Of a stretch of 64,000 nucleotides of DNA, positions 25,690 to 54,976 are shown one piece after another. Position 1 is the stretch's first letter. Each line of letters opens with the position of its first letter. Both the position numbers and the translations under genes were made by a program. The notes beneath the pieces are model-generated. The model did not search any database, was not told where the DNA came from, and saw nothing but the letters and a program-made list of their open reading frames with translations. Source of the stretch: Marsupella aquatica (taxonomy: Eukaryota > Plantae > Marchantiophyta); NCBI GenBank assembly GCA_973895155.1, contig OZ316895.1, forward strand, positions 9,536,184-9,600,183. Reading direction: 5' to 3'.

Positions 25690-25759
25690 TTTTTTGGCGC
25701 TAGATGGAGGGGGCATTTCTTAAGCCGTGAGATATGAAGTTAGAACGGAAGCGTAGGTA

Positions 25760-28753: not shown

Positions 28754-31700
28754 ATACCAAGGGATCGGCATACAAGCCGATTACGAGGGCAGAACAAATT
28801 GAGGCCCTATTAGAAGCCGAGAGAGCACAGCGGCCTAACTCTCAGGAGCAAGAGGTGGATGAGATGGACAGACACGATCCAGAGCCAAGGCAGGAAGGGG
28901 AGCCGACCACTAATTCAAAACCGAATAGACCGGTAAGGGGACAATCTATGGACACCAAGGAAGGGACCGACTCGGCTAGTCCAGCCGAGATCCCAGTTTA
29001 TGGAGGTATGAGATTAGAGAGACTGGAAGCCGAACTGGACCCGAATTTGAAGAAGCAGATTAATATGATCCAAGCACGGCAATATCGGAAGCTCGACTTA
29101 GGAGAGGGAAGAGAACTGAACTTAGGGAGAAACCTAGCACCTGAGCTCGAGAAAGAGATCAGTGACTTATTGATTGAATTTCAGGATGTGTTTGCATGGA
29201 GTCACCAAGATCTAAAGGGAGTAGATCCAACACTAGGGGAACATCGAATTGATCTCATGTTAGGAGCCAAATCATTTCGACAACCAATTCGAAGGATGAA
29301 CCCGAAGTATTCCCTGCTGGTCAAAACAGAAATCGACAAACTAGTGGAAGCTGGATTCATCACTCCAGTCCTGCATTCAGACTGGGTGTCTCCAATTGTG
29401 ATAGTTCCCAAGAAAGCTGGACCCGATGGTAAACCCAAGATCCGGGTTTGTCAGGATTACAGGAAGCTGAATGAAGCAACATTAAAAGACCATTTTCCTT
29501 TACCGTTTACTGATATGGTACTAGACATGGTAGCCAGTCATGAACTATATTCATTCATGGATGGATACTCTGATTATAACCAAATCAGGATTCGGCAGGA
29601 AGACCAAATCAAGACGGCCTTCATCACGGAATGGGGGATCTATGTCTTCAATCGTATGCCGTTTGGACTCTGCAACGCACCAGCTATGTTCCAACGATTA
29701 ATGGTGAACATTTTTCATGATTACTTGAGAAAGTTCATGGAAATCTTCATTGATGACTTTGTAGTATTCGGGAAGGCATCGAAACATGCTAAATACCTCA
29801 GGAAAACCTTCATGAGATGTAGGGAGGTGGGTCTCAAGTTACACCCAGATAAATGTTTTTTTGCAGTAACCGAGGGGGTGCTACTAGGTCACAAGGTATC
29901 AAGGAAGGGCATTGAGATTGACAAAGGTAAGCTAGCAGTATGGCTAGATATCATGCAACCTAAGAACATAAAGGATGTAAGATCCTTCTTGGGATGCATT
30001 GGTTACTATCGCCGGTTCATCAAGGATTTTGCCAAGCTAGCTTTACCATTAACCAATATGCTCAAGGCAGGAGCAGACTTCGAACCCACACCCGAACGAG
30101 TCACAGCGGTAGTAGAATTGAAGCAGATGTTAGTAGAGGCCCCAGTCATGATAGCACCGGACTGGAACAAAGATTTTCATGTTTTTGTAGATGTCTCGGG
30201 CTTCTGTATTGGCTCAGTACTAAGTCAGTTGGATGAGAAAGGAAGGGACCATCCCATATACTTCGCAAGCCGTCAGCTTGCCGATGCCGAACGGAACTAC
30301 TCTACCACGGAAAGAGAAGCATTAGGAGTCATTTATTCTTGTAAAAAGTTTAGGCATTATTTACTAGGGTACAAGGTAATCTTTCATACGGATCATGAAA
30401 GTTTGAAGTACCTAGTCAATAAGCCAGACCTTACAGGCAGAGTAGCAAGATGGATTTTGCTATTACAGGAGTTTGACTATGAGCTGAGGATCAAGCCAGG
30501 AAAGTTACATGCCAATGCCGACTTCTTTTCAAGGATCACAGGTAAACCTGCCACGGATTGCATCGATGATCGATTCCCCGACGAGGAGCTATTCGTTGTG
30601 GAAATAGCTGGTACATGGTACCCTGAGATTTTACAATTTCTCAGCACTTCCAGATTACAGCCAGGATTAAGCCGAGAGCAAGCCGCAGTCTTTGTGCGGA
30701 AGGTCAGACAGTATCAGTGCATTAAAGGCATACTGCACAAGCATGGAATCAACAGCACGATTCAAAGGTGTTTGGAGAAGAGAGAGGTAAAACGAGTCCT
30801 ACGGGCCATGCATGGAGAGGAGGCCGGAGGACATTTTGCCCCAGTAACCACGTCTAAGAAAATATTAAATGCCGGTTACTGGTGGCCCACCTTGCACAAG
30901 GATGTCTATCAGTTTATCAAACAATGCGATCCTTGTCAACGAGCGGGAGGACCAAGGGCGTCCACCAGGCATCCACTGCACCCTATTCTACCTCTGGCAC
31001 CATTCGAGAAGTGGGGTATTGATTACATTGGACCTCTGAAACCACTGACCCACCCTCGACGGAACAAGTACATAATCCTGGCTACGGATTATGCAACTAA
31101 ATGGGTAGAGGCCAGACCAACAACGAAGGATGATGCAATTACTACGGCTAGATTCATGTATGAGCAGATCTTCACCAGGTATGGAGCACCCCTAGAATTA
31201 GTTAGTGATAGAGGAACCCATTTTTTGAATGATATAATTAGTCGTTTAAATGAGCAGTATTTAGTTAAACATAGGCCTACTACTCCCTACCATCCAAAGG
31301 CAAACGGGTTGACAGAACGAGCAAACGGAATCATAGGAAAGATATTGAACAAGACAGTAGCTCAGAACAAACTCGATTGGGATGATAAATTGTTTGCTGC
31401 TGTTTTTGTTTACAATCTGGCCTATAAATCCACTACCGGTCATACACCCTTCTTCTTAACCTTTGGACAAGAAGCCCTGGTACCCATGCAACTTGAGATA
31501 CCGACATTTCAAGTTACAATTGAGGAAAGAGCCTCAGCGGAGGAGAGCCTAAAGGAGCGAGAATATAGGTTAGAAGCTTTAGAGGAAGCGAGAATGATTT
31601 CAGCCGAGAGAGTAGAATATAGACAGAATATCATGAAGCAGCAGTATGATAAAAGGTTAAAAGTAGTTAGTATTCATACCGGTGATCTTGTGCTACTTTA

Positions 31701-31926
31701 TGACAGTAGGTATAGTAGGTTTCCAGGAAAGCTTTACACTCGCTGGTTAGGACCCTTTAGAGTAACCATGATGTTCCCCAATGGCTCCGTGCAATTGGCC
31801 AACATTACGGGAGAGGTATATCCAGTTCGCATCCATTATGACCGCCTCAAGAAATACTATATGGACGAAGATGAAGTTGTTCGCGAGGACGCTTCACAAT
31901 TAAGTGGGGAGCTATGTGATGCCTAG
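28684..31926 (+). CDS. pol: Pol (RT-RNase H-integrase) in the -1 frame
   Basis: RVCQDYRKLN, MPFGLCNAP, FIDDF, RNase H VDVSG/TDH, integrase HHCC and GIDYIG/SDRG/ERAN, and a GPF motif. No chromodomain is present. Confidence 0.92.
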   Translation, partial: GFSAGVVAEPTGSTTPSIIGKELNTKGSAYKPITRAEQIEALLEAERAQRPNSQEQEVDEMDRHDPEPRQEGEPTTNSKPNRPVRGQSMDTKEGTDSASPAEIPVYGGMRLERLEAELDPNLKKQINMIQARQYRKLDLGEGRELNLGRNLAPELEKEISDLLIEFQDVFAWSHQDLKGVDPTLGEHRIDLMLGAKSFRQPIRRMNPKYSLLVKTEIDKLVEAGFITPVLHSDWVSPIVIVPKKAGPDGKPKIRVCQDYRKLNEATLKDHFPLPFTDMVLDMVASHELYSFMDGYSDYNQIRIRQEDQIKTAFITEWGIYVFNRMPFGLCNAPAMFQRLMVNIFHDYLRKFMEIFIDDFVVFGKASKHAKYLRKTFMRCREVGLKLHPDKCFFAVTEGVLLGHKVSRKGIEIDKGKLAVWLDIMQPKNIKDVRSFLGCIGYYRRFIKDFAKLALPLTNMLKAGADFEPTPERVTAVVELKQMLVEAPVMIAPDWNKDFHVFVDVSGFCIGSVLSQLDEKGRDHPIYFASRQLADAERNYSTTEREALGVIYSCKKFRHYLLGYKVIFHTDHESLKYLVNKPDLTGRVARWILLLQEFDYELRIKPGKLHANADFFSRITGKPATDCIDDRFPDEELFVVEIAGTWYPEILQFLSTSRLQPGLSREQAAVFVRKVRQYQCIKGILHKHGINSTIQRCLEKREVKRVLRAMHGEEAGGHFAPVTTSKKILNAGYWWPTLHKDVYQFIKQCDPCQRAGGPRASTRHPLHPILPLAPFEKWGIDYIGPLKPLTHPRRNKYIILATDYATKWVEARPTTKDDAITTARFMYEQIFTRYGAPLELVSDRGTHFLNDIISRLNEQYLVKHRPTTPYHPKANGLTERANGIIGKILNKTVAQNKLDWDDKLFAAVFVYNLAYKSTTGHTPFFLTFGQEALVPMQLEIPTFQVTIEERASAEESLKEREYRLEALEEARMISAERVEYRQNIMKQQYDKRLKVVSIHTGDLVLLYDSRYSRFPGKLYTRWLGPFRVTMMFPNGSVQLANITGEVYPVRIHYDRLKKYYMDEDEVVREDASQLSGELCDA

Positions 31927-34900
31927 ACAGGAATCACTCGACCGGTTAAGTGGGTAAAGCAGGAAGGCACCCTAGGAACACCTTAGTATAGTGACAAAAC
32001 AAGGAAAATATAAACAATTAGGGGCAACCATGGAACCCGGGCAGAGGCCGGAGGTAAGGCTGAGGGTGAAAACCCGATTAGGGTTAGGGCGCGTTAAGCG
32101 TCGGCGGCTAGGAAGGATCAACGGGAAGAAGGACCGGCAGAGGAGAGGGGTAAGGAGCGCTTGCAGGAGATGATGGCTCATTTGCGAGCACGAACTAGGC
32201 AGACGACTACGGGAGGCCAACTACTGTCAGCTGCTTAGGCAAGCACTCGGGGAGAGAGTAGATACGACGATCAACCTAAGGAGGGTATGAGCAACGTCAA
32301 TCAAGCGGCACATTTCTGGGGATGCCTGTTCGAACGGGCAACTGAGTACATCAAGACTTACGAGGACGAGGAGTCAGAAAGGGCAGCTCAAGAACGGCAG
32401 GAGCTCGCTCGATTGTGGGAGCTGCAGAAGACGGCTTTCTTAGGAGGCGAACTCATCAAGGACGAGTTCCTGTGGACGCCTACTTCCAATCAACTCGACG
32501 ATCTTCTGTTTTGCAAAGACAGCGTCGTCGGCATCCGAGAGGCCATCAAGAACTGCAACGACATACACTGGGAATTAAAGGGTAGCACGGAAAGGTGGAC
32601 CCGGGCAACGGTGCTAGGAGAAACCTCCACGGCAGCAGAGATGAAGAGGAAGGGAGCCGTCAACGATGAAGCCACCCCGGCAAAAAGAACGAGGTCGGCG
32701 GCACCAAAGAAGCCAGCCGAGCAGCAGAGCAGGAGGCAGGGAGAAGCCGAAGAGGAGGAGGTCGATCCCATCAAGGCCATTCCAACCAGGGATGACACCT
32801 GGAAGGGCTGGGCGGCAACCCTACCGGTGGAGGTGCAACTACATTTTGCACGGGAGGAGGATGCATGCTTTACGGCCATGCAGACCAAGAAGTACCAAGG
32901 CTTCATGGCCGGATCCGGCTTGGAGGCCTTTGTAAGATTACCATGGCTGAAGCCGGAGGTACCGGAGTCAGACCTATTAGAATTCGTGGGGTCATGGGAA
33001 CCCGAGACCAATTGCACGAGGATATATGGGAAGGATTTCTATCTTACTCCCAAGGTGATTGCCAAAGTGTTTGGCTTGCCGATGGGCAATAAGACCAAAG
33101 TTGATACGAGGAAGACCTTGCCTGACAAGGAGTTCCGGTCGTTCCCCGGGCCATCAACGAAGAATGGCTTCTTCCGGAACACCTGCACCAACCCGCACAT
33201 AGGAGAGATGATCGACTTCTTGCGGGTGACCATGCATTGTAACTTGCCGAGGGCAGAGATCGGCAAGGCACAGGTCTATCTGGCAGAAAGGCCAGACCCA
33301 AGCCGGGACTACAACGGGTACCTCCTCAACCAATTGAAGAAGATCTTAAAGGAGGAGCAGCAGGTAATCAGCATGGGGAGCGTGTCGCGGCTTGGCTATC
33401 ACATGCCGCTGTTGTGCCGGTATGCCAGAGGTCAGACTTTTGCCCCGGTACTTCCCCTGCAGGTAAGGGCACCCGAGGAAGCTCCAACGCCGAGGCCGTT
33501 GGCTGAGAAGCCTCAACCACCTGTTAGTCCTACGATCGAGCAGGTGTTTAGGCCCAGGAAGGAAGACTTGCCGATGCAGCAACCAGGCATGCAGAGTCTG
33601 CTGAAACTACTGGAGAAAGAAAAGAAATCGGCATCGGCAACAACAACGGCAACGGCAACAATGCAGGACACTACTACAGAGGTAGGCCTACACCGGCTCA
33701 CAAGAGAAAACCCCTTTGCTGGAGACAAGGAGAGAATCAGGCCGGAATCCAAGCCAGGTGTTCGAATGTACGTGGGAACCTCAAGCTCCGAATCGGAGGC
33801 AGAATTGCCTGAAGCTCCTACCAACGAAGAGGAGAGGGAGAAGCCGGACATCCAAGAGGTAGAGGAGGCAGTGGAGGACTGCAGCCATGATAATTCCGGC
33901 TATGGGTCGGACCATCACGTTCCAGGAGTAAGGACCTGTGGCCGGTTTGTCCCCACACTTCCAAGGGTAGTGCGAGGGGACCCCAACCAGCAGAGTAGCC
34001 CTGAGTCTCCCCCACCAGATGTTGCTCCCCCGAGCTTCAACGGCATAAAACAGACGGTGCAGGAATTTCAGGAGCGAATCAAGCAGGAGGAAGAGGCCGC
34101 CCTGGCTAAGGAAAAGGATTTACCAGGAGGAGATTGGCCGGAGGATATCAGGCGGCTAGCCAAAAAAGGAAGCAAACCTCTAGCCACGATTGAAGAGATC
34201 CGCAGGACGGCTTGGGAGCAGAGGCCACGATGGGCGATGCCGATCACTTCTACTTACTCCACCTACGCTAAGAATAGAGCCATGGAGTATGGTGAGATGT
34301 GTGGGGAACTTGCGCTCGGCATCTTTGGAGAGGAGTTGGAGGTAGGACCCTTTTTTCATAGGGAGCAGTTGGAGAAGCACCAATTAGAAGAAGCGGTGGC
34401 TTTAGAGAGAAGCAAGAAGGACGAGGTCATTCGGCGGCTTAGGAGGATGGAAGCCGAGATTGAAGATCTAAGGGCGGCCAAGAAAGCCCAAGATGAACTG
34501 CGGATTAAACGACATGAGCTGAACATCATGCAGGGGCAGTTGGACGCCGCGCAGGCTGATAATCAGAATATCAAGGATAAACTGACTCAGACGCAGGAAG
34601 AGTTGGCCGACACGATCAAAGAAAGGGAAAAGTGGAAGCAAGAGCTGAAGAATACAGAGGAGGCCCACATAACAGCCAACAGCCGGGCCATGGCGGAGAC
34701 CCAAAGAAAGGAATGGGCGTTGAAAGGGGAGCTCGAAAAAATCCGCGGAGCCCTTGAGCAGAAGGAGGTCGAGTTAGGGAAATCCTATCAAGGGATTATG
34801 GCGCTGCAGCAGGAGCTTGCGTCCCTGACGGCCAGCTTCAAGGCCGACCTAAGGGAGAAGGACGAGATGCTCGAACAGACTTACGCCAAGATGAACCAGA

Positions 34901-36539
34901 TAGAGTCTGTCATCATTGCAGAGCTCGACAAGGAGCTAAGAGCAACCCAGGAGGAGAGGGCTACCTTGAAGAAGGAATTGGAGGAAGCCCACAGGGAGCA
35001 GGAGGAGGCCAAAAACGAGCTGGAGGGGGCACGTAAGGACCTGGATGAAACCCAAGAGGAGTTGGAGGAAATCACGAGGAAGATGGAGAACCTACAGCGG
35101 CGGGCCGACAACCAAACAAAGCGGCTGAAGAAACAAGCCGCAGTATTTAAATGCTTAGCTGCAGCAGGTCCATCTCCTGTTGGGACAAACCAGTTACCAG
35201 GGGTGGTAATTGCCGAAGGACAAGCCGCGCCACCTGCACCAGTGCCGGAGGTAAGTGGGAAGGGGAAGGGACCAGCTGCCGAGCCACCAACGAAGAAGAA
35301 GCGGAAACCTTCAGGGTCAAGGAGTAATACGACTTCACAGGCCATGGTGATCAAGGAGGTAGACCCAGCACCGACCCCAGACAGGGTCACGGCTAAGGAT
35401 CCAACTACCCTAGGGGAAGGGGAAGCCGAAGCCGTGGGAGTGGCTGAGGCCGAAGCCGTGGGGATTGCCGAGGCCGGTGTCGAGGCTGAAGCCGAAGGTG
35501 GACCCAGTCAGGCCGATGGAGAGTTGACTCGGTCAAGGGCAGGTAATCTGTCAGTAGGCGGGCCAACGGCAGTGGCTGAGGAGGAAGTATTGGGGGCGTC
35601 CATTGAGGATCCACCACCGGTGTCGTGATGGTGCAAGGGCGCCGTTCCTTTTAGGGAGGGCGGACGTGGAGGGAGGAGGCGTGAGTGGGCAGGGCGGGCA
35701 CGGATCTCCACGTTTAGGATTAGGATCAGAACCAGGAGCGGCCCTGACACTTAGCTTAGTGGGATTGCGGTCCCACTGGTAGGAGCAACACTTGTGCTCC
35801 TGCCTTGCTGTACATAGGTAGATTCGGGCAAGTAGATTACTGTTAAGTAGATTAGGCTTACGATGCAAAGAAGGGCGGATCCACTACCAGGATAAGTACC
35901 TGGGCAGCGGGGAGCTCAGGGCCTCTTCTTTAGCAAGTTTTTAGTTTGCACCAGCCGGGCTGGGATCAAGTAGTACGAGAAGCTCTCGGTTAGTCATACA
36001 GTGACCCTTGTGTATATTCATGTTTCCTCATGCCTAAGAGCTGAATAGAGTTGGCCTCACGGCTTAGTTCGCAGAACTTGTGTATGAGATGTACTGTTTG
36101 TATGGCAAGTGCATGGTATGACTCAGTCAGAATGAGTCATTTTGCTATTTGTGTGTCGCATTAACTTGTGTGAAGAGTGCCCACATCAACAGAAGGAAGG
36201 AAAGTAAGCAGGGGAGTGAGAGTTGGATGTGTCGAGCTGAGAGAGGTCTTAGCGGCTTAACCAAGCCTATTGGGGATCATTCCGGCGGCGGAATCCAAAC
36301 ATACCTAACAAGATGGAGGGGAAGACAGGGGAAGGCCTATATTAGGCCGGCTACGTATCTCATGACCCGATGAAGGATCTGTCCAGTATATGTGTGTAAA
36401 ATGTTAATAGTAGTAGTAGAAGGTTAGCAGCGTCCCATGCCGCTAAGCCGCGGAAACGGCCTCGCCAAGCACGAAACCTGCGGGAATCGGCTTGAGCTGG
36501 GGGGTTTCTTGGGTTTAGGGAGCCATGGGACGCACCACA
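31915..36539 (+). repeat. 3' LTR (4625 bp)
   Basis: Near-identical to 21065-25689. Confidence 0.95.
32287..35628 (+). CDS. LTR-encoded 1113-aa protein (copy 2)
   Basis: Open ORF differing from copy 1 by only a few residues. Confidence 0.8.
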   Translation: MSNVNQAAHFWGCLFERATEYIKTYEDEESERAAQERQELARLWELQKTAFLGGELIKDEFLWTPTSNQLDDLLFCKDSVVGIREAIKNCNDIHWELKGSTERWTRATVLGETSTAAEMKRKGAVNDEATPAKRTRSAAPKKPAEQQSRRQGEAEEEEVDPIKAIPTRDDTWKGWAATLPVEVQLHFAREEDACFTAMQTKKYQGFMAGSGLEAFVRLPWLKPEVPESDLLEFVGSWEPETNCTRIYGKDFYLTPKVIAKVFGLPMGNKTKVDTRKTLPDKEFRSFPGPSTKNGFFRNTCTNPHIGEMIDFLRVTMHCNLPRAEIGKAQVYLAERPDPSRDYNGYLLNQLKKILKEEQQVISMGSVSRLGYHMPLLCRYARGQTFAPVLPLQVRAPEEAPTPRPLAEKPQPPVSPTIEQVFRPRKEDLPMQQPGMQSLLKLLEKEKKSASATTTATATMQDTTTEVGLHRLTRENPFAGDKERIRPESKPGVRMYVGTSSSESEAELPEAPTNEEEREKPDIQEVEEAVEDCSHDNSGYGSDHHVPGVRTCGRFVPTLPRVVRGDPNQQSSPESPPPDVAPPSFNGIKQTVQEFQERIKQEEEAALAKEKDLPGGDWPEDIRRLAKKGSKPLATIEEIRRTAWEQRPRWAMPITSTYSTYAKNRAMEYGEMCGELALGIFGEELEVGPFFHREQLEKHQLEEAVALERSKKDEVIRRLRRMEAEIEDLRAAKKAQDELRIKRHELNIMQGQLDAAQADNQNIKDKLTQTQEELADTIKEREKWKQELKNTEEAHITANSRAMAETQRKEWALKGELEKIRGALEQKEVELGKSYQGIMALQQELASLTASFKADLREKDEMLEQTYAKMNQIESVIIAELDKELRATQEERATLKKELEEAHREQEEAKNELEGARKDLDETQEELEEITRKMENLQRRADNQTKRLKKQAAVFKCLAAAGPSPVGTNQLPGVVIAEGQAAPPAPVPEVSGKGKGPAAEPPTKKKRKPSGSRSNTTSQAMVIKEVDPAPTPDRVTAKDPTTLGEGEAEAVGVAEAEAVGIAEAGVEAEAEGGPSQADGELTRSRAGNLSVGGPTAVAEEEVLGASIEDPPPVS

Positions 36540-37907: not shown

Positions 37908-38563
37908 CGGCCAGAAGGGCCCAACCTCCATGACAGGAAACAGGAAACAGTGATGATCATAACAGGAAAAATAGTTGAACAAAACAGGAGAATTGGTATT
38001 ATCATTGAGAAAAAATGGCTTAATTTTGGACCCAACCAAAGAGGTCAAATTCAACATCAACTCAAAAAGATGGGGAAAATGACAATTATCGAAAGATGCC
38101 TTTACTAGCGCTTAGTCCTAACCAAGCGTTTGATACCGTTACAAAATATCATTAACAAAATACTCGCTCACCATCTACCGGAATGATCAGAGGATAACGG
38201 TTTCTAAGGCAAGAAAAGGTCATCCTCAAGAATGCATGCAAAAGAAATCCACACGTTCAGACCTAGAAACTACAAACTGAAACCAAGTAAGGAAATGAAG
38301 TCTAGCGCCGGGCGCTAACAAAATTGAAGTCCAAGTGACGATTGAATACAAAGAAATCTCCGTTACCCGTACAATGAAATTTACACATCCAAAAAACTGT
38401 AAAAACAAATTAAGTTTTTTGTGCAACCCACAAAAGATTGAGCCATGTTGAAAAGCAACCAAATGTTGTTTACTAGCGCTGGACGCTAACCAAAACAAAG
38501 TTACCGTTACGAAACGACAAGTCGTACATACCCGTTGAACGTAAACTAGAATACTAAGCCTTC

Positions 38564-41500
38564 CTATAAACCATCAGCATTCTGCCTCGCTAGAATATAA
38601 CGCAGTTCCGCAATGGTAAGAATCGGTTGGCTTGGGAGGATATTGTCCACAAGATCAAGCTTGCAGATAACTTTGTAAACCCAGTACAAGTGTTTACATG
38701 GCATGAAAGGTTTCCCTCGAGAATGTCGACGAAAGAAATCTTCACAAGAGCAACAAGGGAAAATGCAAATCTGCACCCAGTAAGTATTTGCAGTTCGTAA
38801 ATGTGCATGTGTGCGTATCTGGAATCGTTTCCCGTATGAGTTTCCCGATGAAACTTCCATAGTTTTGATCAAAGTCATTATTTCTTTCGTTGCTGATTCA
38901 ATCCTTTTATGATATTCTTGAGTGAGATTTGATCTGGAGCTCATCGCACGCCCGTTTCTCGTTCAAAAATGGATGTTGACTTATGCAAGATCGATCTTTT
39001 CAGGGAAAACGTCAATGTTGATTCTCAGTTCAAATGGAGAAGGACAACGTGAAATAACACCTCCTCTCGAGACTTCAATGCCCTGCTCGTGAAGGAAATT
39101 CAACTCCAGACTTGAAAGATGAGTGCCTTTCTGTACTGGCAAAAAGTCTGGGCAAGTAGGGAGGTTCACAATACCTCGACAAGGGCGGCTCTTCCAGCAA
39201 TCACGAGTGGGGCAGAACCAGACAAGCTCTAGATGGTGTTCACCTCTGAATAAGCGGTAACCTTTGACGACTATTCCGACAACCCCTGCATTTGAAGGAT
39301 ATCCGACCTTCTTAATTTGATTACGACACTCATCTCGATCACAACTTCCAGACAACGTCCCATTACACTGTGGTCCAGCACCGTGTCTGGAAACTCTCCG
39401 CAAATGCCACGACCCGGGTACAGCGTCCACTTCAAAAAGCAAAGTGTCTACAGGAATGAATGGAGTGGTGTTCGGAGCACTTTTTGGAACTTCGAAAGAT
39501 TGAGTGACATGATGGGAAACTGGAGAGCCACTTTCAGACAAATCGATAACTGGATTTGAAGGAGGAGTTCTAAGTATCGGAATGTGCTCAAACTCGGCTG
39601 AGGTCAAATTTCTCCTCTTGCAACCTCGGGTGTTTGGCGTAGTTATGAGAACCGTGTCATGTCGATGGGAGTCTTGTGGAGAGACATTCCCGGTCGTCGG
39701 ACCTTTTCTTTTCATAGACTTCGTCACAAAATCCCCATTCAACGGAGAATCCCTCTCCAAATCAAATTCTGCTGCATTTGCAAGTAACATATTAGAGGCT
39801 TCTTCGAAGAGTTTCGGGGACCCTGCCTGGTCAGCCAAAGGAAAAGCCAATTCAAACACTGTTGGATCGGTACCCCGATGGAGCCCTTCACGATATGCTG
39901 TATAGGCTGCTATTTGTGAGATTGCTCTGTTGTGATCGGTCTTACATCCTTCGAACAAACCAAATGTTTTCTTTCCCTGCCATGCTTTCATGATTCCGTG
40001 AACAGCTTCAGAACCAGTGCAACTGGGAATCATCCCCCCTTCAAGTGCACTTTTTCTCTGAAAAAGAGTTTTGTCAAATTCAGTAAAATATATCGAATAA
40101 AAAAGAGGAACTTTAAAATGGGCGGACAAAAGGTATGAATGTTTTCATGATCATTGTGAAGATTGAAGAAGCTATCAAGCTATTCGTACGTTAGCGCCCG
40201 GCGCTGGCAAAAACATCAGTAAATATCACAATTAGAAAAGGGATATTAATACTAGCGCCAGGCGCTAGTATACATTGACTCACCAAACGTATGAAATTTC
40301 CCCACTGTCGCCACCTCACAACCCACCAAGTGATCCATCCTTGCAACATTCTAAGTTTCCCAGGAATACAATTTCTAGATCTCCACCATGAATCAATCTC
40401 TCGTGAAACCCTGTAGGCTTCCACAAATGAAGCGGCATTCCGCAACTTGTCCCAAAGGATTCTATGTTCAACACGTTTCTCTTCAAGTACTCCTTCGATA
40501 GAGTGACGATGCAAAGACTGATAAAAGTGGAATGCATCCGATCGCTCTCTCTCCGGGTTTGGATGGCCGTCAAAGAAGACATTCCTAACCGCTACCATCC
40601 CGCCTGAGCGTTATCCGCCATGAAACCATGGATTTCCACACCGTTTAAACCGTTCTCCAAAGCGACTTTGATCATCAACCTCCAAGCTTTCTCAAGCGAT
40701 GCAATGTCCTCTGCTTTGAGTTCACAAGTAAATATTGTGCACAAAGCTCGATAGTTATGGTCATACACATGTGCACTAAAAGTACTCCATTCTTTCGACA
40801 TCCTTTTCATCACGTCAAAGCTCACCCATGCTCCTTCTAGAGGCCCCCCTTTCTTCATCTGACGCAGTAAATCTACTCCCGATCCATGACCTTTGATAGT
40901 CATTTTGAAAATATGCGCTCTATCACCTTTACAGCCCTGCCCAGGAAGAAGATATCTTTGGAGAAAAGGAAACGTAACATTATTCTGCATGCGAACCAGA
41001 TATTCCAAATCACCTCGACCAACCTGATCTTTGCGAACGCTCTTAAATAACGCAGAAAACTTCTGAGGCGTTGAAACGAGCATAAGTGATTTCCAGATTT
41101 CTGATTCTTCTAGCTTTGAAATGTCATCCACAGACTCACCTACGACATCCATTAAAGATCCAGTGATCTCATTTTTCAAAACGCACGGTGTAGAAGAAGG
41201 AGACTTCTTATGTTGTCTCCGTATTTCTTCTATTGCTATTTTCTCAGCACTTCTAGACTAGACCTTCCGACATGGATGGTTGTGCACTCCCATATGGATT
41301 GCAAGTCGTGACATGTGTTTTGCAGTGTCATTTTTGATCAAAACTTGCGGGTACATATAAAACATTTTTGCTGGACAAGACTCAACACAAAATGGAACTT
41401 GAAGGCAATAGCGACAAACAATTCCTCCAGCATCGATAAAACTCCCAGGACAATGCTGACCAGAGAGCTTGGGGGTCCCATCCCATCCATTACAGTTTCT

Positions 41501-42313
41501 GACTTGAGTCCTGGTGTAAAACTCACATGCTCTATTTCGGCATTCGAGAGAACCACTACAACTTACTTTCCCAAACTCCCACATCTTCTTCGGAACGACA
41601 TTAGCAGAAGTAGGAAGGATTCTAGTCCAAAGGTAGCAGTCCTTGCATCAATCCATGTTTCGCAGACGATCCCCTTTCGAGCCAACACCTTGAACAGGTG
41701 GAAGCTCAGATATGGTATTCCCATTGTACTCGACAGGTAAGCATTCAACTTGTTTGTGAATGAATGCCTCGGACCTAACAAAGCGCGCTAACTCACTTTG
41801 TCCAGTTGACTTCAACAAGGCATCAAGTGCGCTTCTTCTGTACACAACCAGAACAGGACGAGTTAGAGTGTCTCCATCATCAGACTCCTCCGACGGAATC
41901 AATACGGGGGGTACCTGGGGCGTCAACAAACTGGTACTTCCGCCCTCCTTATTGACCTCACCGCCCTTTGAGATTGGTGGAGAACCCTCAGAGCATTCAG
42001 CGTTGGACGTAAGGTCAATCACATCGTGAGTGACCTGGTGCCTCTCCACCTTGACATGAACAATGTCCCTGAGTTGAATGAAAATCAAGTACTCCACGCC
42101 ATATTCGAGATTCCAAACAACGTCCTCCGCTTTAGTATCAAAATGAGAGGGCCCATCGTTCAAAGTTCTGATACTCAAAATATGTTTTCTCGTCACCCCA
42201 AATCTTCCACACAGGTAATTATCACTAACACGTTTCTTGGTTTCGGAAATCGACACAGGGATCGTCACAACGTCACCTATATTCGGACATGTTATTCCAA
42301 TAATGCGAGACAT
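38564..42313 (-). pseudogene. MULE-type DDE transposase with an N-terminal Cys/His (GCM/WRKY-like) region and a C-terminal SWIM finger
   Basis: VSFDVMKR, GFMADNAQ, FHFYQSL and SWIM CSC...CKH. It has in-frame stops, one frameshift at ~40595, and an intron at ~40283-40058. Confidence 0.8.
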
Positions 42314-43687
42314 TCTAGCTCCCCAAAGATAACCGACTACATAAAATAAAGATACATGGTAAAATGAAGCTAGATTGTATGGTTGAGGGTTTCTTCTAAA
42401 TCCAAGTCTCAAACGGAAAGAGCCGTCGAGCGGTTATAGGATCCGTTGGGTACGGATTTTCTTACCGTTCAAGAAACGACAAAACCATCAATTCGGCTAC
42501 TGTTGAATTAATGGTTTTGACGTTGTAACCAACGGGGTAATATAGTAGCGCCAGGCGCTAGCATTGTCCACATCTGAAATAGCCCAAAAAATGAACAACA
42601 AAAGCAAAGATCATCGACCATTTTGGTTACTGACACAGGTTAACATCCTACGACAGGTTTCGGGTTTCCTTGGAAATATATTGGGTTTCCTTGGAAATAC
42701 CCCCTTATTTATGTCAGATGACAATATTACCCAGGTCTGCTAATATTAAAATTGATCCATTTGAGATCGAGTACAAGCTATCATAATAATAGCGCCAGGC
42801 GCTATCATAAAAGTCATAAAATTGTCAAGATGTACTCGTACATTATTTATTGAAACTTACACATTTTGTGTCCAAACATCTACCATTTTGAGGTGTCTCG
42901 TTACTAGCGTCGGGCGCTATTATTGAAATCTACACATTTGAGCCCTATTTGATACTAAAAGAAAAATAGCGCCTGGGACTTTCATAAACTTTATAGAAAT
43001 AGAATCCGTTTATTACAAAATCTTTCACGCTTCAGTCCATTCATTCGCGTGATTTTTTAGTACAATGTTACTAGCGCCAGGCGCTATTATTAAAATCCTT
43101 CATTTTAAGATATATTTTAGTCTAGCATAATAATAGCGCCAGGCGCTAATATTAGATCGAAGTAGAATACTGACATAAACGGTCTTTTTAAACGGTAACT
43201 TTGACCGTTTATCGTTACAATTTATAATGAATTCTTGGATAAATATATTTATGAGTATCTATAAACTAGTTAAAATGTGACAAGTGTCAACCTTTAGTAG
43301 GTCTGATTTTGGATGCTCGTGCTTTTCGATGTGTACTTGTGATACATGTCGGTCTGCCAGAGGGTATATCAGATAAGATATTTTCGCGATAGTGTCTTCC
43401 TTGATCGTTAGAACGAAACCTGCGCACGTTTAGGATCGTTGTCAATCATTCGTCCATATCGGTACAGCACCACAAGAAACGTTGCATCACGCAAGAAGCA
43501 CGTTGCGGTGCGGGTTCCCCGTGTGTATGCATCTTAAACAAACATGGAGAATCATTCTCCTGGCCATTCTGAAACATCTGAGTCCTCATTCTCCGGATCA
43601 GTTTATACTCGAAGAGTCACTCGTTCGTCTGCATCGAACTCTTTGTGAAACATTAGTCAGGCGATTCCAAAGCCAAAAAGAGGCATC

Positions 43688-46600
43688 ATGGAGTCTTACG
43701 GAGATTTTGCAATGGAGGACGGGGGCGAGGGAGTCCTGTCCATGGATGCTGTGATCGAGAAATACGCAATGTCGTTTGGAGTCGATTTTAGAGGGGAGAA
43801 GAAAGAGCCGCCGCGTATCCCTCTTTGTCGGCTTGTTCACATGGAAATCGTTCAGACTTTACAGAAAAATAGTGCATCTATCGATAAGCTCAAGGATTCA
43901 TTTCGGAGCTCTGGGTACAACTCTTCAATTGGGATGCGGTTTTACGTCCAGCCCACGGATTCAGAAGGAGTCATTCAATTCTGCACGCCTGAAATTCGGG
44001 AGACCTGGGATGCTGTTTGGGTTGCCCAGAACGACTTGTTTGAAGCAGAATGTGCTATTGATCCAGATTTCCACATTCTGAAGGATAAGATGTTCTATGT
44101 TTTTGACGGGAATCATCGACTCTACTCATGGACCCAAGTAACAAATGAGAATCCAGACAATATCAAGTACCATCCGCGTGTTCAATGCACTGTTTTTAAG
44201 GGAGATCGAGGTTCTCTAGTTGAGCTTGAAGCGGCTATGCACACGGTGAACCAGTAAGTATTCCTCAAGTTGCATAAACGCTATTGAATTTGGTCGATTG
44301 CGCTTGATTTTTGAAAGGTTAGTTAGCGCCAGGCGCTAATATTTGCCATTATATCTTACAGGTTAGGGCAAGTTGTGGTGGAACCATCGTGGATTCTTGA
44401 TGCCGATAGAATCAATAGGATTTTAACTCATGACTTGGAGGCCTACAAGCCGATCATCGACCCCGGAAGCTTCAAGCGATTTCAAACTGTTCGTGCCAAA
44501 ACAAGAAAGGGGTCTTGGTATACCAAGCAGATGCCATTGGAAGCATTGGTATACATCTTGTGTGAAAACAAGATTAAGTCATATTCACTTCAATTTAAGC
44601 TTGACTTGGCTGCTGCGGCAAGTCAAGGTCGCCCGTGGTCATCTGAAGAGACTGGTAAGCGGTATCCTGCCATGATGAAGGAGGCAACGAAGGAGTGGAG
44701 CATAAAGACATCCAAGATTACCCCCCTGATAAGCCCAGAGTTTGGTGATTTTCTGTCAACTTGTGCAGAAATGTACATTCTTACGGAGAGGAACAAACGA
44801 GAAAAGAAGTCGGACTCTGTAGTATGTACAATGGACCGCGCGCGTCTATTCACTGCTGTCTCCTACTTGGATCCACAACTGCGCTGTACTCTTCTTGTCG
44901 CTCACTGTACACCCGAGCTCAGAAAACAATTTTACCATCCCCCGAGTGTGAATGATGACCCTGTTAAATAGTGGTGTCATACATGGCACATGTGGAGTTT
45001 GGTGGAAGGAATTGCAATTGCAATGTTACAGACATCTCTTTCGCAAGTCCAGTCGATCCTACCTGCTGATCGTCTAACGCTAGGAGGAGTGGAGACGTTT
45101 GAAGCATTGGTCTTGAACATCACCAATGATTTCAAGACATACGGTGAAACAATGAAGGCAAAGTTTTTTAGCACAATTTGGCAGTCCAAGTACGGAGACA
45201 AGGAAGACTATACCATTCGCAACCAGAAGCGAGCCAAGAGATATCTGTATCGCTTCTACATGGCGATGGAGACCAGTTCTCCAGAGTATTTTTGGGCTTA
45301 CCCTCCTGCATTCCAGAAATGGTCCGTTCTAGAGGGGGATGCTTCTAGCGAAGTTTACTCAATGTACCCTGCCGAAGGGGACGTTACACCACGTGAAATT
45401 TCATTGTGGGAGATAACCCACTGTCCATGGTATCTTGACATAGATAAGTGGGACACCCCTTTCGATGAAGCTGAAAAGGATGCATTTCTGAAATTATCAA
45501 AGTCTTTAGTGCCTCGGAAAGTTCTCTCTGAAATGAAACAAGGTTTATCGGAAGATGTAGATGCCTCGGCGAGCGAGCTGTAGAAACATTGCAAAACAGA
45601 AGTTTTGCATGTAGACAGGAGTCAAAAACCCCGGGCGAAAGCAAAAGTAGACACTGGAGTAACTAGCCCATCAACGAGATCCGGGAAGAAACGTGAGATT
45701 CTTCTATTTTTCATTGGCATTCAGTAATTTCCCTTCACTAGTTTGGATATTTAGGTTACTTTTTGTTTAGCGCCACATATGTTGGTGTCCCTTTATTGCT
45801 TGATTTTGTGTAGTTTGGTTAGCGCCCGGCGCTGGTGTTATTTTCCATTGGCATTCTGTATTTTTTTGATGAGCGCTGCAGATCAAGTTGTCTATTTGGT
45901 TAGCACCCGGAAGGGCAATTTGGTTAGCGCCCGACGCTGGTGTTATGTGGACCGTAATCTTGGAAACTTTTGTATCTTTTTCTAGGTGGACGGAAATTGG
46001 ATGGAGAAGAAACACAAGATGCAAAGACGACTGTCACTCCTGGAGTCTCTGAAGCTGATACGGGGGAACAAGATGTTCCTGATGAACAGACTCCTCCCAA
46101 CACGGAGAAGATGGTGCGACCTGCAGATGCCACCAGCACAAAGAAAAAGAAAAAGAAATCTTCGGATCATGGATTTTCCTCTCGGGATTCGGTCGCTTCC
46201 ACTGGTGTTCAACGAGATGTTGGACAGTTCAAGTCTAAGACTTCTAGGCATGTTTTTGTTGAGTCCAGCGTAATGGACTTCTTTGAGAGTGTGTTCACGA
46301 AAGAGCAGAAACCGGCTTGGGTGTCAAATGTGGAGAAGTGGGTGAAAGACCTAGTCTTGCTTGGTCTAAGGGAGAAAGGAGTCATAAGAGGAGGAAAGAT
46401 AAGATCATTTGGAGTTGATGCTGGATTCGTTTACCTCCCAACTGGACTGCGTCCATCCCTTTTAGAGAAGAAGTCTCCAAAATGGAATTCCCCAGATCAC
46501 AAAATTGTTGGTTCATTCTTTCGCGCAATGGACCCCTTTCTAGCAGATGATGGTATATTGGCCATTTTGCATACTGGCGAGTATGATCAGATCTCGCAGG

Positions 46601-47475
46601 TCATTGCCGCGAGCTAGGAGTCTCAAAAGTTTCAGTGTGTGAAAACCCTAAACGTGGTTATGGGAGTTCCAATGTACATGGCCCGAAGTGATTGCCAGGT
46701 AAATTCTCTCACTCTTCGTGCTGTCCTTTGTTAGCGCCTAGCGCTAGCTAAAAATGTTTTCATTTACCCTTCGGTTAAGGGGATATTCTTTGTTAGCGCC
46801 TGGCGCTATCCAAAATTCATTGTTATGCCATGAGTTAAATGATTTTCTGGTTGGATCGTCGGCATCTTAACAATGGACTTTGTTGGGATTTCACAGGTTT
46901 TCACATTGAGATTGGATCTGTTCAGTCGTGTTTCGTCAAAGGTTAAGGTTCCAAAGGACCCCAAGTTTTGACCCCTCTCTGCAATTGAAGATCCTTCTAT
47001 CACTAACCTTATTGGTCTCCCGAGTGTGAGGAAGGATCCAACTCCTTCAGCAGCGTTTGCTGGCAATGGACGCTTGTCCGTTGGGTTCATGCAATCTGTG
47101 TTAGAGTTAATCACTCGGCCGGGTGACATTGTCATGGACTGGACTGTGGGTTCGGGAAGTACATTTGTTGCTGGTGACTATTGTGGTCGTTTTACTCTTG
47201 GTATAGAAAACCGAAAAGAGTTTGTTGAGATTGCGGAAAAGACATGGATGGATTTATTGATTCCAAAGGATGTCAGTTCCTCATCTCCCGCTAAAGATGT
47301 GGGAAGAAAACAAAAAGATAAAGTTCGCTCTGTCTTAAATTTTGACTCTGAAGATGAAGAGGATGGAGATGCTGTTGGAGATGATGCTTCAGGAGGACAA
47401 GGAGAGGAAAACAACGGAGATGAGAAGGAGAGGCATACGACGGAAGAAACAGAAGATTTGGATTCTTCTGAGTAA
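43688..47475 (+). pseudogene. Spliced accessory gene: ParB/Srx-like N-terminal domain plus C-terminal N4C/N6A DNA methyltransferase-like domain
   Basis: VFDGNHRL at ~44105 and LELITRPGDIVMDWTVGSGSTFVAG...GIE at ~47100-47210. Introns at 44254-44361, ~45693-45986 and ~46699-46896. Several in-frame TAG/TGA stops. Confidence 0.7.
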
Positions 47476-48326
47476 TGCCCGTAAGCTACTTCACTTTACA
47501 TTATTGATTCTGTTACTATCCCATTTTCATTTTCAATTCTAATATGGTTCCATTCCTCTTCCAGATCGGAGTGGAATCTTCAAGAACGTTTTAATCTTTG
47601 GAGGAAATCCTCGAGAAAAGTTCTCGTTTCTCCTCAGAAGCCTTTCGTGTTGCCATCGTATGCAGAATATGCTGCCCGTAAAGAAGAACAGAGGAGAACA
47701 CTTACTTGGGAGAGTAAGGGCTTAAGGTTAAGAAGAGGTTTAGATAGGAAATTCATCCATCAGCCTTTACTCAATGATGGACCTAGAAGCGAATTTATAG
47801 ATGATGAAGCTGAGTCGACGGATAGGTCTAGCAATAGCGAGTCCAAGTCTTCTAACTTGGAATAGGTTGAATGGGAATTTCTAAGGTTTTCTTTGGAACC
47901 TTGTACTAGCGCCCGGCGCTATTAAACAGGGTGTTCGGATCTGAGACTTTAAATGAGTTAGACGCACCGGGAGTCTCTTTCCTGAGTGCATATTTGTGCA
48001 GATATCAGAAATGCATGTACTCGTACAGTTGTACGGTGAATAATTATACCTTCAGTCTGTACGTATTTTCGTTTTTGGTTGATATGATCGTTTGGACTCT
48101 CTCAAAGTGTAGTGTTTGTTCAACTTCGGGATTGTTCAACTTCGAGTTTGTTCAACCCTAAACGCATTTCTCCCTTTCATTTCTGTGAGGCGCCGACTCA
48201 CCTCTTCCCTTCATTTCGTTTGTGCACTGCCCAGACTCACCTCTTCCCTTCGTTTCATTTCTGGTCTGCCCGGACTCACCTCTTCTCTTCTCCCTGAGTT
48301 TTGCATCCGTTGTTTTCATCAACTGA

Positions 48327-48797
48327 ATGGATAAGGGAAAGCAAATAGCAAAATCGGAGAGCTGCAATCCGCCAAAGGCGATGGTTTGGAGGTCGATTAG
48401 AGATCCGGGTTTAGATTTGACTCCATCTTTTACGCAGTGCCCAGAGACGTCGACCGAGAGGAACAAGTTGTGGCTGGCCACGGATGAGGGTATTAGCCAC
48501 AGAACTGGACACCTTCCATCGCGTGATCCTTCGCCTCCACTTCCTTTTCGAGAGAGGTTCTCTGTTCACGACCCTGATCCTTCCAATGTGTATCGGGTGG
48601 AAAGGACATCTTTTTTCAGAGACATCCAAGCAGACACCGGACGTGTGAGCTTTTCAGATTCGAACATCCTGAACGACCGGAGTCGGAGTCGCTATCCCGG
48701 ACCTCGTTTTTTTCTGGATCGAGAGGATGGGTTTCGACAGGATGAGGATAGGTTCAAAGTTGGGTTGGACGACGACTGCATGTTTTCTACTTCCTAG
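48327..48797 (+). CDS. Possible small third ORF of the MULE (156 aa, unknown function)
   Basis: ATG-initiated open frame between two palindrome copies, with no recognisable motif. Confidence 0.3.
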   Translation: MDKGKQIAKSESCNPPKAMVWRSIRDPGLDLTPSFTQCPETSTERNKLWLATDEGISHRTGHLPSRDPSPPLPFRERFSVHDPDPSNVYRVERTSFFRDIQADTGRVSFSDSNILNDRSRSRYPGPRFFLDREDGFRQDEDRFKVGLDDDCMFSTS

Positions 48798-49667
48798 AGA
48801 GTGTGGATTTCTTCTCGACACTAGCGCCTGGCGCTAGCTTTCATCTCATCGTTGGAGTCGTTCATGAGTTTGATTCATGTCATCTTTTTGAATGGGGGCT
48901 CCGGTTTGGCCGAGTTAGCTTTATTGCTCCTTCCATTTTATTATCGCATTAGGTTTTTTGAGTATGTTATTAGGGTTATTTCTTTTTCTCGAAGGTTATG
49001 GACTTTTATTACCTTCTGGATATCAATGTAATTTCTTTTTCAAGTAGCGCGTGTCGCTAGCGCCTGGCGCTACTATTATATGTTCTATTCTCCTCCACAA
49101 TTATGTAAACCCGCCTCTATAAAATTGTTTCTTTCATCTCTCTTTTTTCTAGTGTCCTCCAAATATGCTGCAAATACTATTCGTGGCTCTTTTATTGTTG
49201 AAATTGGTTGTTTCCTTTTACTGGAATCGGGTTCCTGTCAGATGGAAATCCCTGTGACAAAACGATCTTTAAGCTTGATCTGATGTATTCGGTCTTACCG
49301 AGCCAGCCAATTGTGAATGTCGGAGAACTCCAATTCATCTTAGGAAGGGAGAATCTGCATGGTTTATAGGAATTTTGATCATTCGACGATACATTGAACG
49401 GACATTTTGTTAATGTTGTTTTGAACGGCAACAAACTCTTGGTTAGCGCTCGGCGCTAGTAAAACTTGTCTTTCCATAATTGCTGTACAGAACTCTAAAC
49501 ATATTGGAGTTCCTATTGAAATTGGCCTCCTTTTTTGTCCAAAATTATGTCATCTTTTGTGTATGCTAGTACCAAATCTCCTGTTTTGTTCCTCTCTTTT
49601 TCCTGTTATGATTGTTACTGTTTTCTGTTTCCTGTTTCCTGTCACGGGGAAAAACCTCTGGCCAGAA

Positions 49668-53482: not shown

Positions 53483-54976
53483 AGTGGTGGACCTAGCCAC
53501 CTAACGCCCTCACCAATCCCAGCACTTGCGCCTAAGTGCCCTTGGTGCCCAAACGCCTCCACGGAATACCTCGAGCAAGCATCCAAGTGCCTCTAGCACC
53601 ACCTACGGCCCCTCCCATATGAAGCCGCACTTGCTCACCTACACGACCGCTACTCAACGGTCCTCATTGTCTGCACAAGCAACCAAGCACCTCGGTAAGT
53701 AACCCCTCCGGATCTAGAACTTGCCAAGTCTAGCATCCTAACTCATGCTCAACAGACGTTGGTAAATAGGTCAATGATAGGTCCTCCCGATGCCATAAGC
53801 CAGAACCAGAACCCACGCCCACTGTCCGTCCAAGACAGCTCCTTCCATGGGCACGGCCCGAGTTCCCCCTCGTACCTATCCATCACCAACTGACCGCCCT
53901 GACCTCAGGACATGCTCATGGCCCAAATAGCGTAGCTTGTCCTAAAGCTTGTCCCAAGCTTGTCTCAACACGCCGGGACCAGAATGGCCCCAACTCTAAT
54001 AACTGCTCCCGGTTTGCCCCACTGATGGTCTAGGGACCGAGCGCCCTTGGAACTCAGCCTCCATACCTACTTGGCCTTGCCTTCCCAACGCAAGCTCCCT
54101 TGGGAGGCTGAACGCGGCTTGGCTGCTGTTCGGCAGGATTTGGCAAGCGGGCAAGCTAACACCCGCAAACCACAAGAACTTATGGCACCCCCGGACCCCT
54201 CTAAGCTCAAGAGGGCGTAGCCTTCCTCAAGAGCTTTCCAACGCACCCAAGAAATCCTCCAACAAATTTCCCGTTGGGAAGATATTGCCATTTCCGTTTG
54301 GCGGTTTTCCTTAGTGTCGCGACTGCCGCAGCTCACGACTTTGGCTCGGCCTTAGCCCCCAGGTTGACACCACTCCCCTCATATATGCTTCTGGAGACCT
54401 GCCACCCCCGGACCAACTTTGGTCCCTAAACATTTGGCCCCCAACCCGGATCCCATCGCGCATAATGGGCGCGCCATCAACTAGCAACGCCCATAACTTT
54501 CTTGATAGGCATCCGCAAGCGGAGTGCCTTAGCTCGTTGTGACCGGGCCGACCCAGTGCTCATGCCTAGGCCCTCAGGTCTGATCGCCGCTCGGAGCCCC
54601 CAACCGGACCAACCCGGATCGGGCCACAACTTGCGCCCCAAGCGTCCTTTGCCAATGGCGTCAACTCCATTGGCCTTGGGCCCAAGAGGAGCTCACTCCC
54701 AAGCCCTCAGAACTCAAAGCCCATCCGACGGTCCGGACGGCCATCCTTGAGCCCGGCCCTTTTGCCCTTGACCGGACCAGCCATAGGCCAGTCCAAGTCC
54801 TTAGTGTGTGTCCCCAACTTGGCCCCTTGCCTCGCTAGTGCCACGTCTCATTGCCCACAAGTCTCCCCGTGCTAAGTCCTCCCCGGATGGCCTATCCGGG
54901 CCTGGACCATAAGAGAGCTCGGCGTCAAAGTCAGCGACGCCGGAGCTAAGTGTTAAGGTAGTCAAGTTCGGCGACT
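53483..54976 (-). repeat. 5' LTR of the chromovirus
   Basis: Direct repeat of 19048-20540, adjacent to the PBS. Confidence 0.9.

Follow-up and report, generated by a model that had tools for sequence, protein, structure and literature searches.

A dispersed palindrome in the non-coding DNA of a Mutator-like element of the liverwort Marsupella aquatica as a candidate binding site for a ParB-fold accessory protein

Introduction

Proteins encoded by transposable elements that recognise, or have been proposed to recognise, short motifs of their own family are known from several lineages. Here we describe a degenerate Mutator-like DNA transposon (Mutator-like element, MULE) of 11.74 kb found in a stretch of 64,000 nucleotides of the genome of Marsupella aquatica (GenBank assembly GCA_973895155.1, contig OZ316895.1, positions 9,536,184 to 9,600,183 of the forward strand), which was analysed at its full length and is referred to as the window. 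The element carries a 15-letter palindrome in many copies, a transposase gene and a divergent second gene (gene 2), whose product has a predicted ParB-like fold and a methyltransferase-like domain. The published systems compared with it are described from the accessible parts of the sources cited.

Transposon genes of the ParB-methyltransferase type are, according to these sources, already known from algae. In the brown alga Ectocarpus, the Sola-1 element Sola1-1_Ec32 carries, opposite to the transposase, a gene for a protein of 1104 amino acids with ParB-like and N4/N6 methyltransferase domains, and it was suggested that this protein binds and modifies the element encoding it (PMC12477816). 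It is similar to gene 2 in this pair of domains, by description rather than by sequence comparison, but no binding site is described in the accessible text, whereas the element studied here is Mutator-like, belongs to a land plant and has a catalytic motif that looks degenerate. In the red alga Bostrychia, Plavaka elements encode PAG3, with ParB and 2-oxoglutarate (2OG) oxygenase domains, and PAG2, with PF01555 and SET domains (10.1101/2025.02.11.637652). As in the element of M. aquatica, a ParB-domain accessory protein and inverted repeats, the latter being the proposed target, occur in one element; however, the repeats of Plavaka form tandem arrays beside one gene and the ParB and methylase domains are in separate proteins, in contrast to the dispersed, phased single palindromes found here.

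In layout, the element resembles the VANC/VANDAL system, also Mutator-like, with an accessory gene and a short, family-varying motif in intronic, intergenic and terminal non-coding DNA (PMC5735166), and a family-specific motif in non-coding DNA was likewise found in this study (20 of 20 sites, with a variant motif in the sister family represented by locus L001). It is not a VANC system, however, as it has dispersed palindromes and a different protein, while VANC motifs are non-palindromes of 8-9 bases in tandem repeats and no ParB or methyltransferase domain is reported for VANC in the accessible text; moreover, binding and demethylation by VANC are proven, whereas binding is here a proposal from sequence. 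TnpA of Spm and the AtMu1 transposase are also element proteins that recognise clustered family motifs and activate cognate copies (10.64898/2026.08.24.746577), as is proposed for gene 2, but the sites of TnpA are terminal and non-palindromic, and the binder is the transposase or a derivative of it.

Sites of the parS type are palindromic, and canonical members of the ParB group load at palindromes. Bacterial ParB and KorB, as well as the ParB-N6_N4_Mtase fusions that are common in phages, share with gene 2 the ParB/sulfiredoxin (Srx) fold, a GxxR-like motif and, in the phage proteins, the same pair of domains (10.1101/2025.10.10.680097), but gene 2 has no identified helix-turn-helix (HTH) or C-terminal dimerisation domain and is not accompanied by ParA. 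The same survey of the ParB fold names sulfiredoxin as the common eukaryotic member, and plants are not mentioned in its main text.

In the literature covered, neither the motif nor a MULE of land plants with a ParB-methyltransferase gene was found to be reported, the subscription literature and the algal supplements being mostly outside its scope, and the accessible parts of a preprint on retrotransposon adenine methyltransferases (10.64898/2026.05.21.726589) and of Iyer 2015 (PMC4738411) do not describe the element. With regard to a bacterial REP-type origin, a text search on TAGCGCC returned no plant DNA transposon with the motif, judged by titles and the beginnings of abstracts. The present study adds a defined candidate site, a rule for its spacing and, from a sister family, a variant whose spacer differs; a mapped, phased and family-specific candidate site in a land-plant element was not found in that literature. 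Together these make the proposal of self-recognition directly testable in seed-free plants.

Occurrence and placement of the palindrome

The palindrome TAGCGCCNGGCGCTA was present in 11 exact copies and, allowing up to three mismatches, in 20 copies within a single MULE of 11.7 kb. Five further copies had one mismatch and three had two, and in a scan of the window every copy with at most two mismatches was located at 38303-49458; matches with three mismatches numbered three in the window, one inside the element (42967) and two outside it (11912 and 27285). With at most one mismatch, 16 matches were obtained in the window and none in each of 100 dinucleotide shuffles, and the half-sites TAGCGC/GCGCTA occurred 37 times in the 11.7-kb element versus 4 times in the remaining 52.3 kb of the window. 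The palindrome is a real, non-random feature of this DNA.

All 20 sites (up to three mismatches) were non-coding, on exon models checked against homologs, in an element of which 61% is coding DNA (P=6.6e-9). Two of the three reading frames of the palindrome are free of stops, so its exclusion from exons is not forced by its TAG alone. Two sites were found at the left end, two in the transposase intron, six between the genes, one, two, two and none in the successive introns of gene 2, and five at the right end; 13 of the 20 were internal (seven intronic and six between the genes), kilobases from the ends of the element. In addition, a decayed copy with four mismatches at 38106, in the left terminal inverted repeat (TIR), is in register with the copy at 49444 in the right TIR.

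The shoulders of the sites show a purine/pyrimidine (RY) bias before and after the core, within AT-rich DNA. Beyond that, the flanks of the copies have little in common, the best pair reaching 50% over 80 bases, and only some neighbouring sites have common flanks (42905/43072, 42790/43134 and 45820/45925); with dispersed sites and mostly unlike flanks, amplification as tandem repeats of the VANC type was not found. A tandem array or long hairpins were considered and rejected for the window, the flanks being largely unrelated and the symmetry of each site's own flanks no better than that of shuffled pairings. Pairs of the 15-mer separated by 35-65 bases were absent from metagenome and from viral contigs (0 in both), collections that are poor in plant DNA.

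Conservation of the site in copies and relatives

The variation tolerated by the site was studied in the 18 copies with at most two mismatches, leaving out the overlapping copy at 49045 and that at 42967, with three mismatches. The arms (positions 2-5 and 11-14, including both CpGs) were unchanged in 18 of 18 copies, three copies ended in G, and the six C>T/G>A changes were all located in the four inner C/G positions of CCNGG (6/6, p=0.004). The sole family variant listed within a site of gene 2 intron 3 concerned the central base, being one of only seven rows for this intron.

Among 21 metagenome loci, one close relative was detected (L001, transposase identity 59%), which has an intron at the same position and, in it, three copies of ATTGCTAGCGC-YG-GCGCTAGCAAT; the arms are kept, the spacer is 2 bp, and outside the palindromes the intron does not align to that of the window. 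A transposase homolog with 52% identity, P0002, reads into the same intron and ends in ASARR-stop, which is the translation of the 15-mer and an ending found in one of 194 stored proteins. Neither the palindrome nor gene 2 was found in the 20 distant loci (identity ≤40%, mostly short), and seven of these, checked at the same intron position, had no such palindrome.

Because the arms are invariant, the centre is variable and the spacer is 2 bp in L001, the recognised unit would be two inverted TAGCGC half-sites and not CCWGG/CCSGG. Being only in non-coding DNA, invariant in the arms, phased and kept in diverged relatives, the palindrome is likely a site of the element that is under selection for protein binding.

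Regarding the initial annotation, a many-copy palindrome of a MULE that is absent from the exons is confirmed, all copies with at most two mismatches being inside the element. Its presence in every predicted intron was stated in error, as four of the five introns contain it and gene 2 intron 4 (47481-47564) lacks it, and one of the six promoter copies (42546-43134), all of which exist, has three mismatches (42967). The description of a motif that stays CG-rich amid C>T damage holds only in part: the CpG observed/expected ratio is 0.94 in the non-coding DNA of the element outside the sites, which is hardly depleted, and six C>T/G>A changes are found within the sites, all of them in the inner CCNGG.

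Relatives of the transposase also showed repeats of other kinds. One motif copy of L001 centres a perfect 60-bp palindrome with 29-bp arms (L001:1172-1231). Among the distant relatives, downstream of the transposase, L009 has its own repeated, non-palindromic AGCCTAAC-like motif (L009:2800-3300), L016 and L017 have their own repeated, non-palindromic TTTCATCC-like motif, and L021 has a TTTCATCC-like motif in tandem units of 163 bp (L021:4840-5860).

Spacing of neighbouring sites

Gaps of up to 130 bp between neighbouring sites in the window were 61, 115, 62, 105, 62, 105, 62 and 13 bp; in the region between the genes they were, in order, 244, 115, 62, 105 and 62 bp. In contigs from public runs, the gaps from palindrome to palindrome were 61, 63, 61, 40, 51, 32 and 32 bp among the joints listed (12 of 15), seven of these 12 linking palindromes through unlike spacers and two rows representing one locus, and in L001 they were 84 and 90 bp.

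When uniform gaps were taken as the expectation and periods of 10 to 11 bp were scanned, the phasing had p=0.0075 in the window (one duplicate dropped), p=0.01 in the contigs (two likely homologs of window pairs dropped), p=0.0003 when pooled with L001 and p=0.012 in the strictest set, and p=0.0055 was obtained with the long out-of-phase gaps of 171, 223 and 244 bp included. The best period was 10.25-10.45 bp, with the short gaps near multiples of 10.4 bp. This spacing suggests that proteins on neighbouring sites may share one helical face.

The gene 2 protein

Gene 2 is encoded on the plus strand in five exons (1212 codons) with six premature stops. Homologs of exon 1 comprised 230 representatives (HMMER), a word-based search with the same exon yielded nothing among longer proteins, and the gene 2 homologs carry names from Riccia sorocarpa and two species of Adiantum. 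In R. sorocarpa, many copies of the methyltransferase-like domain (P0161-P0194) are automatically named 'trimethylguanosine synthase' or hypothetical, and these seem to represent the accessory gene of this transposon.

The domain of exon 1 was modelled with a predicted local distance difference test score (pLDDT) of 92.8 with 82 aligned homologs, and of 33.7 from the single sequence. Top rows for this model were Srx, ParB, Noc and KorB in Foldseek (best E 0.036, probability up to 0.99) and KorB (Z 7.1), PadC (6.4), Srx (6.3) and SerK (5.5) in VIA, and a ParB-like PHROG was matched with E 0.016. The GxxR of Box II is represented by DGNHR, with G in 74 and R in 68 of the 82 aligned rows. On the model, the N-terminus of gene 2 has a ParB/Srx fold. 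Besides CTP, ATP or GTP can be bound by this fold, and the sequence does not allow the preferred nucleotide to be predicted (10.1101/2025.10.10.680097). Canonical ParB has an HTH and a C-terminal dimerisation domain; the middle region of gene 2 had no Pfam or Atlas match. Profile comparisons with solved sequences were uninformative.

The methyltransferase-like region matched PF01555 at positions 167-221 (E 1.7e-8, above the cut-off), its nearest solved sequences were DpnA and CcrM, and it shows the permuted order of beta-class N6/N4 enzymes, with the motif IV region upstream of the S-adenosylmethionine (SAM)-binding motif I. In the window copy and its subfamily, YLPTG takes the place of the (D/N/S)PP(Y/F) of motif IV; among the variants listed, the tallies of change types in four runs had no change at ≥30% of depth in this codon. 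The motif is covered by 24 of the 32 homologs examined; Asp is present in all 24 and the aromatic residue in one, and the forms are D[LM][PS][ST] in 23 (D[LM]P[ST]G in Riccia) and DVPF in one from Adiantum. SPPY was not found, as there is no Ser in the window or in any of the 24 homologs. Asp is found at this position in some N4C enzymes, so the lack of Ser does not exclude N4-methylcytosine (4mC). Since the motif IV Asp is replaced by Tyr and the fourth residue is not aromatic, the domain of this subfamily is likely not catalytic. In the gene 2 family, the methyltransferase-like domain is retained although its catalysis is doubtful.

Among the variants listed for exon 3, 27 of 33 were at third positions and 27 of 33 were synonymous, and on these sequence variants the exon is under purifying selection; its stop at 46615 is private to the window copy.

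The proposal of a ParB and methyltransferase protein is therefore borne out in the form of a ParB/Srx fold with an N6/N4 methyltransferase-like domain. The palindrome as its cis site, also proposed initially, agrees with the behaviour of a selected site and with the domains of gene 2, but the part that made CCWGG/CCSGG an N4C methylation target is not supported, the core being the most variable part and shortened in L001, and motif IV having Y or D and never S.

Function of the palindrome and alternative explanations

That the palindrome is a double-stranded binding site for a dimer is, from its sequence, highly probable. We further infer that the binder is the gene 2 protein, which would mark the copies of its own family with a methyltransferase domain that is likely non-catalytic, and a probability of roughly 0.5 is given to this reading. 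The ParB-fold accessory protein would bind two inverted TAGCGC half-sites separated by a 3-bp spacer, its ParB domain acting as a nucleotide-gated dimer or clamp, and neighbouring sites would be bound on the same helical face; the methyltransferase-like domain would serve in DNA or SAM binding, and the marked copies would probably be kept expressed, an anti-silencing role as with VANC. Support for gene 2 as the binder comes from the location of most sites, which are internal as for VANC21, and from the TIR tips, which hold a separate ACAGGA repeat suited to the transposase. The use of palindromes by the ParB group and the pairing of a ParB-domain gene with inverted-repeat arrays in the Plavaka elements of Bostrychia point the same way. 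If true, it would represent a second MULE route of escape from silencing, independent of VANC, and a ParB-type DNA loader at work in a plant nucleus.

Several observations weigh against this reading. The fold scores are modest (best E 0.036 in Foldseek; Z 7.1, root-mean-square deviation 3.0 and 95 aligned residues in VIA), no DNA-binding domain was identified in gene 2, with its middle region lacking Pfam or Atlas matches, one palindrome copy is present per TIR, and the transposase has a zinc-finger-like region of its own (a lead, with a score <0.9). The excluded copy at 42967 is altered in an arm. The phasing was noticed post hoc, and some distances are out of phase, namely the long gaps (171, 223 and 244 bp), the overlap of 13 bp and the 90 bp of L001. 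As the matches behind the contig joints are short, these joints may stem from unrelated repeats, in which case the motif would be commoner in the genome than the window suggests. Furthermore, the 20 distant loci without motif and gene 2 fit a motif tracked by the transposase equally well, and L001, of 2 kb, is too short to show gene 2 either way.

These last points lead to the transposase itself, which could bind the palindrome through its N-terminal zinc-finger region for end synapsis or self-activation, gene 2 being otherwise employed. One copy of the palindrome lies in register in each TIR, the motif is present at 52-59% transposase identity and absent at ≤40%, the N-terminal region resembles GCM/FAR1/FLYWCH clusters (scores 0.79-0.88, a lead only), and the AtMu1 transposase alone activates cognate copies, as far as the accessible text describes (10.64898/2026.08.24.746577). 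We nevertheless consider this explanation unlikely, as 13 of the 20 sites are in introns or between the genes, while binding by AtMu1 and TnpA is, in the same text, terminal, and the tips of the TIRs are occupied by the separate ACAGGA repeat. A host-factor site, or a DNA or RNA hairpin serving as splicing aid or small-RNA source, spread by local duplication within the element, would agree with the common flanks of some neighbouring sites and with the long palindrome centred on one copy of L001. However, the distances from site to splice site are not fixed and vary from 16 to 134 bases, a search of Rfam gave no match, sites are found also between the genes and in the TIRs, the arms of single copies are not specifically extended in the window, and the change of spacer length between sister families is not readily explained by a host factor, so that this option appears quite improbable. 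We rate as quite improbable, too, a catalytic version in which the gene 2 protein loads at the palindrome and writes 4mC at the inner CCNGG or N6-methyladenine (6mA) nearby, blocking 5-methylcytosine (5mC) of the host. The PF01555 match with a recognisable SAM-binding motif, the motif IV Asp kept by the Riccia homologs, the DVPF of one Adiantum homolog and the active beta-class 4mC enzyme of Marchantia, by which the chemistry exists in liverworts (10.1101/2021.02.12.428880), speak for it. Against it, no part of the site is more mutated than the CCNGG centre, which L001 has in a shortened form, and YLPTG here, with Ser in 0/24 and the aromatic residue in 1/24 homologs, departs from the TSPPY of MpDN4MT1.

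Binding by a gene 2 protein that is probably non-catalytic is thus preferred. A wider extension of it, according to which MULEs of liverworts and ferns run a prokaryote-derived self-recognition of the ParB/parS type, remains tentative, with the odds against it; it would comprise nucleotide-gated loading at phased palindromes, spreading or bridging, shielding from silencing, joint divergence of spacer and protein, and some methyltransferase domains acting as non-catalytic readers.

Description of the element

The features of the element are detailed in Table 1. Its insertion site lies within pol of a retrotransposon of the Gypsy type, and the empty site is represented by a contig of public run X2 that joins 37908 to 49660, with eight letters that fit both sides. 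Contigs from four public runs and three organisms align along the element at many levels of likeness, from which it follows that it belongs to a multi-copy family. Long TIRs and a target-site duplication of 8-10 bp are hallmarks of MULEs (PMC5225508), and all were found here together with the empty site: the TIRs, of about 270 bp, are identical in 201 of 249 aligned bases (81%), and the flanks repeat GGCCAGAA, exact over 8 bp and with one C/T difference over 9 bp. Each TIR tip has four ACAGGA direct repeats (37933-37989 and 49579-49642), the left four within the first 75 bp; 8 of the 14 copies in the element are within 80 bp of the ends, and those at the tips are, by sequence, candidate transposase sites.

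Table 1. Coordinates of the features of the Mutator-like element in the window.
Feature	Position	Strand	Characteristics
Left target-site duplication CGGCCAGAA	37908..37916	+	Exact over 8 bp; one C/T difference over 9 bp
Mutator-like DNA transposon, 11.74 kb, degenerate	37917..49658		TIR pair, empty-site joint, contigs of four runs
Left TIR, ~270 bp	37917..38190	+	Decayed palindrome at 38106
Palindromes downstream of transposase gene	38303..38488		38303 (exact), 38474 (2 mismatches)
Transposase exon 2	38564..40057	-	Carries the third motif of the catalytic region and, C-terminally, a SWIM-like finger; two premature stops; tblastn to P0008/P0009
Transposase intron	40058..40283	-	Palindromes 40192 and 40253, 61 bp apart
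Transposase exon 1	40284..42313	-	Cys/His-rich region; WxxFD, GFMAD, DxFH; two premature stops
Divergent intergenic region	42314..43543		Palindromes 42546, 42790, 42905, 42967 (3 mismatches), 43072, 43134
Gene 2 exon 1	43544..44253	+	Predicted ParB/Srx-fold domain, DGNHR (Box II-like) motif; one premature stop
Gene 2 intron 1	44254..44361	+	Palindrome 44324; relatives diverge behind 44259 in three runs
Gene 2 exon 2	44362..45692	+	Conserved middle region, two premature stops; tblastn to Riccia P0163/P0033, E ≤1e-50
Gene 2 intron 2	45693..45985	+	Palindromes 45820 and 45925 (105 bp apart); half-site 45768
Gene 2 exon 3	45986..46698	+	Methyltransferase-like domain start; motif IV YLPTG (46432-46446); one premature stop
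Gene 2 intron 3	46699..46896	+	Palindromes 46732 and 46794, 62 bp apart
Gene 2 exon 4	46897..47480	+	SAM-binding motif I region, PF01555; two premature stops
Gene 2 intron 4	47481..47564	+	Palindrome absent
Gene 2 exon 5	47565..47865	+	C-terminal tail common to Riccia homologs
Right subterminal palindromes	47907..49072		47907, 48822, 49045 (2 mismatches, overlaps next), 49058
Right TIR	49376..49658	-	Palindrome copy at 49444-49458
Right target-site duplication TGGCCAGAA	49659..49667	+

The transposase gene has one intron, at a position common to the window, L001 and the database homologs, four premature stops and one frameshift of one base near 40593. The DDE transposase signature of MULEs includes a (C/D)xxH motif. 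The signature was recognised here, WxxFD, GFMAD and (C/D)xFH being present in 10 of 10 homologs, and TTNLAE was found in two of the 10, most of which stop at the intron. No match to the Pfam MULE domain was obtained in the window pieces or the 10 homologs, a SWIM match was obtained in homolog P0008 (E 6.8e-5), and, as regards a possible N-terminal DNA-binding domain of the WRKY-GCM1 type, Atlas feature matches to GCM, FAR1 and FLYWCH clusters were obtained on P0002, with scores all below 0.9. An alignment search with the transposase found no relative in viral contigs.

For gene 2, the donors of introns 1 and 3 were placed where relatives match the exon and diverge directly behind it. Exon 5 compared with P0033 alone was matched in score by 46 of 2000 shuffles; as its tail motif is common to several Riccia proteins, intron 4 exists.

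A third gene at 48158-48797 was considered and rejected, with no Pfam match, no homolog among the stored proteins and no codon-position bias; the palindrome is absent from this stretch. It contains overlapping open reading frames (ORFs) of 156 (+) and 135 (-) amino acids, beside a 39-bp triple repeat (48170-48290), and in run X6 a relative with 90% likeness spans 47628-48649.

Other features of the window

An open gene for a Replitron HUH endonuclease of 423 amino acids is located at 1171-2442 (+; PF21859, E 1e-16, and PF21860), with short repeat arrays nearby at 350-770 and 2640-3030. An ORF of 209 amino acids at 8506-9135 (+) has a bacterial look and no Pfam match at E 0.01; an Lhcb gene precedes it at 6063-6737, and an exon of an aldo-keto reductase follows at 11019-11540. 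A retrotransposon at 21065-36539 has two near-identical extra ORFs of 1129 amino acids, 10,850 bp apart around gag-pol, either in very long terminal repeats or by duplication, and a further inverted copy is found near 62880-63972. Finally, two direct repeats at 19048-20540 and 53483-54976, 92-95% alike and 34.4 kb apart, are likely the long terminal repeats (LTRs) of the Gypsy element into which the MULE is inserted.

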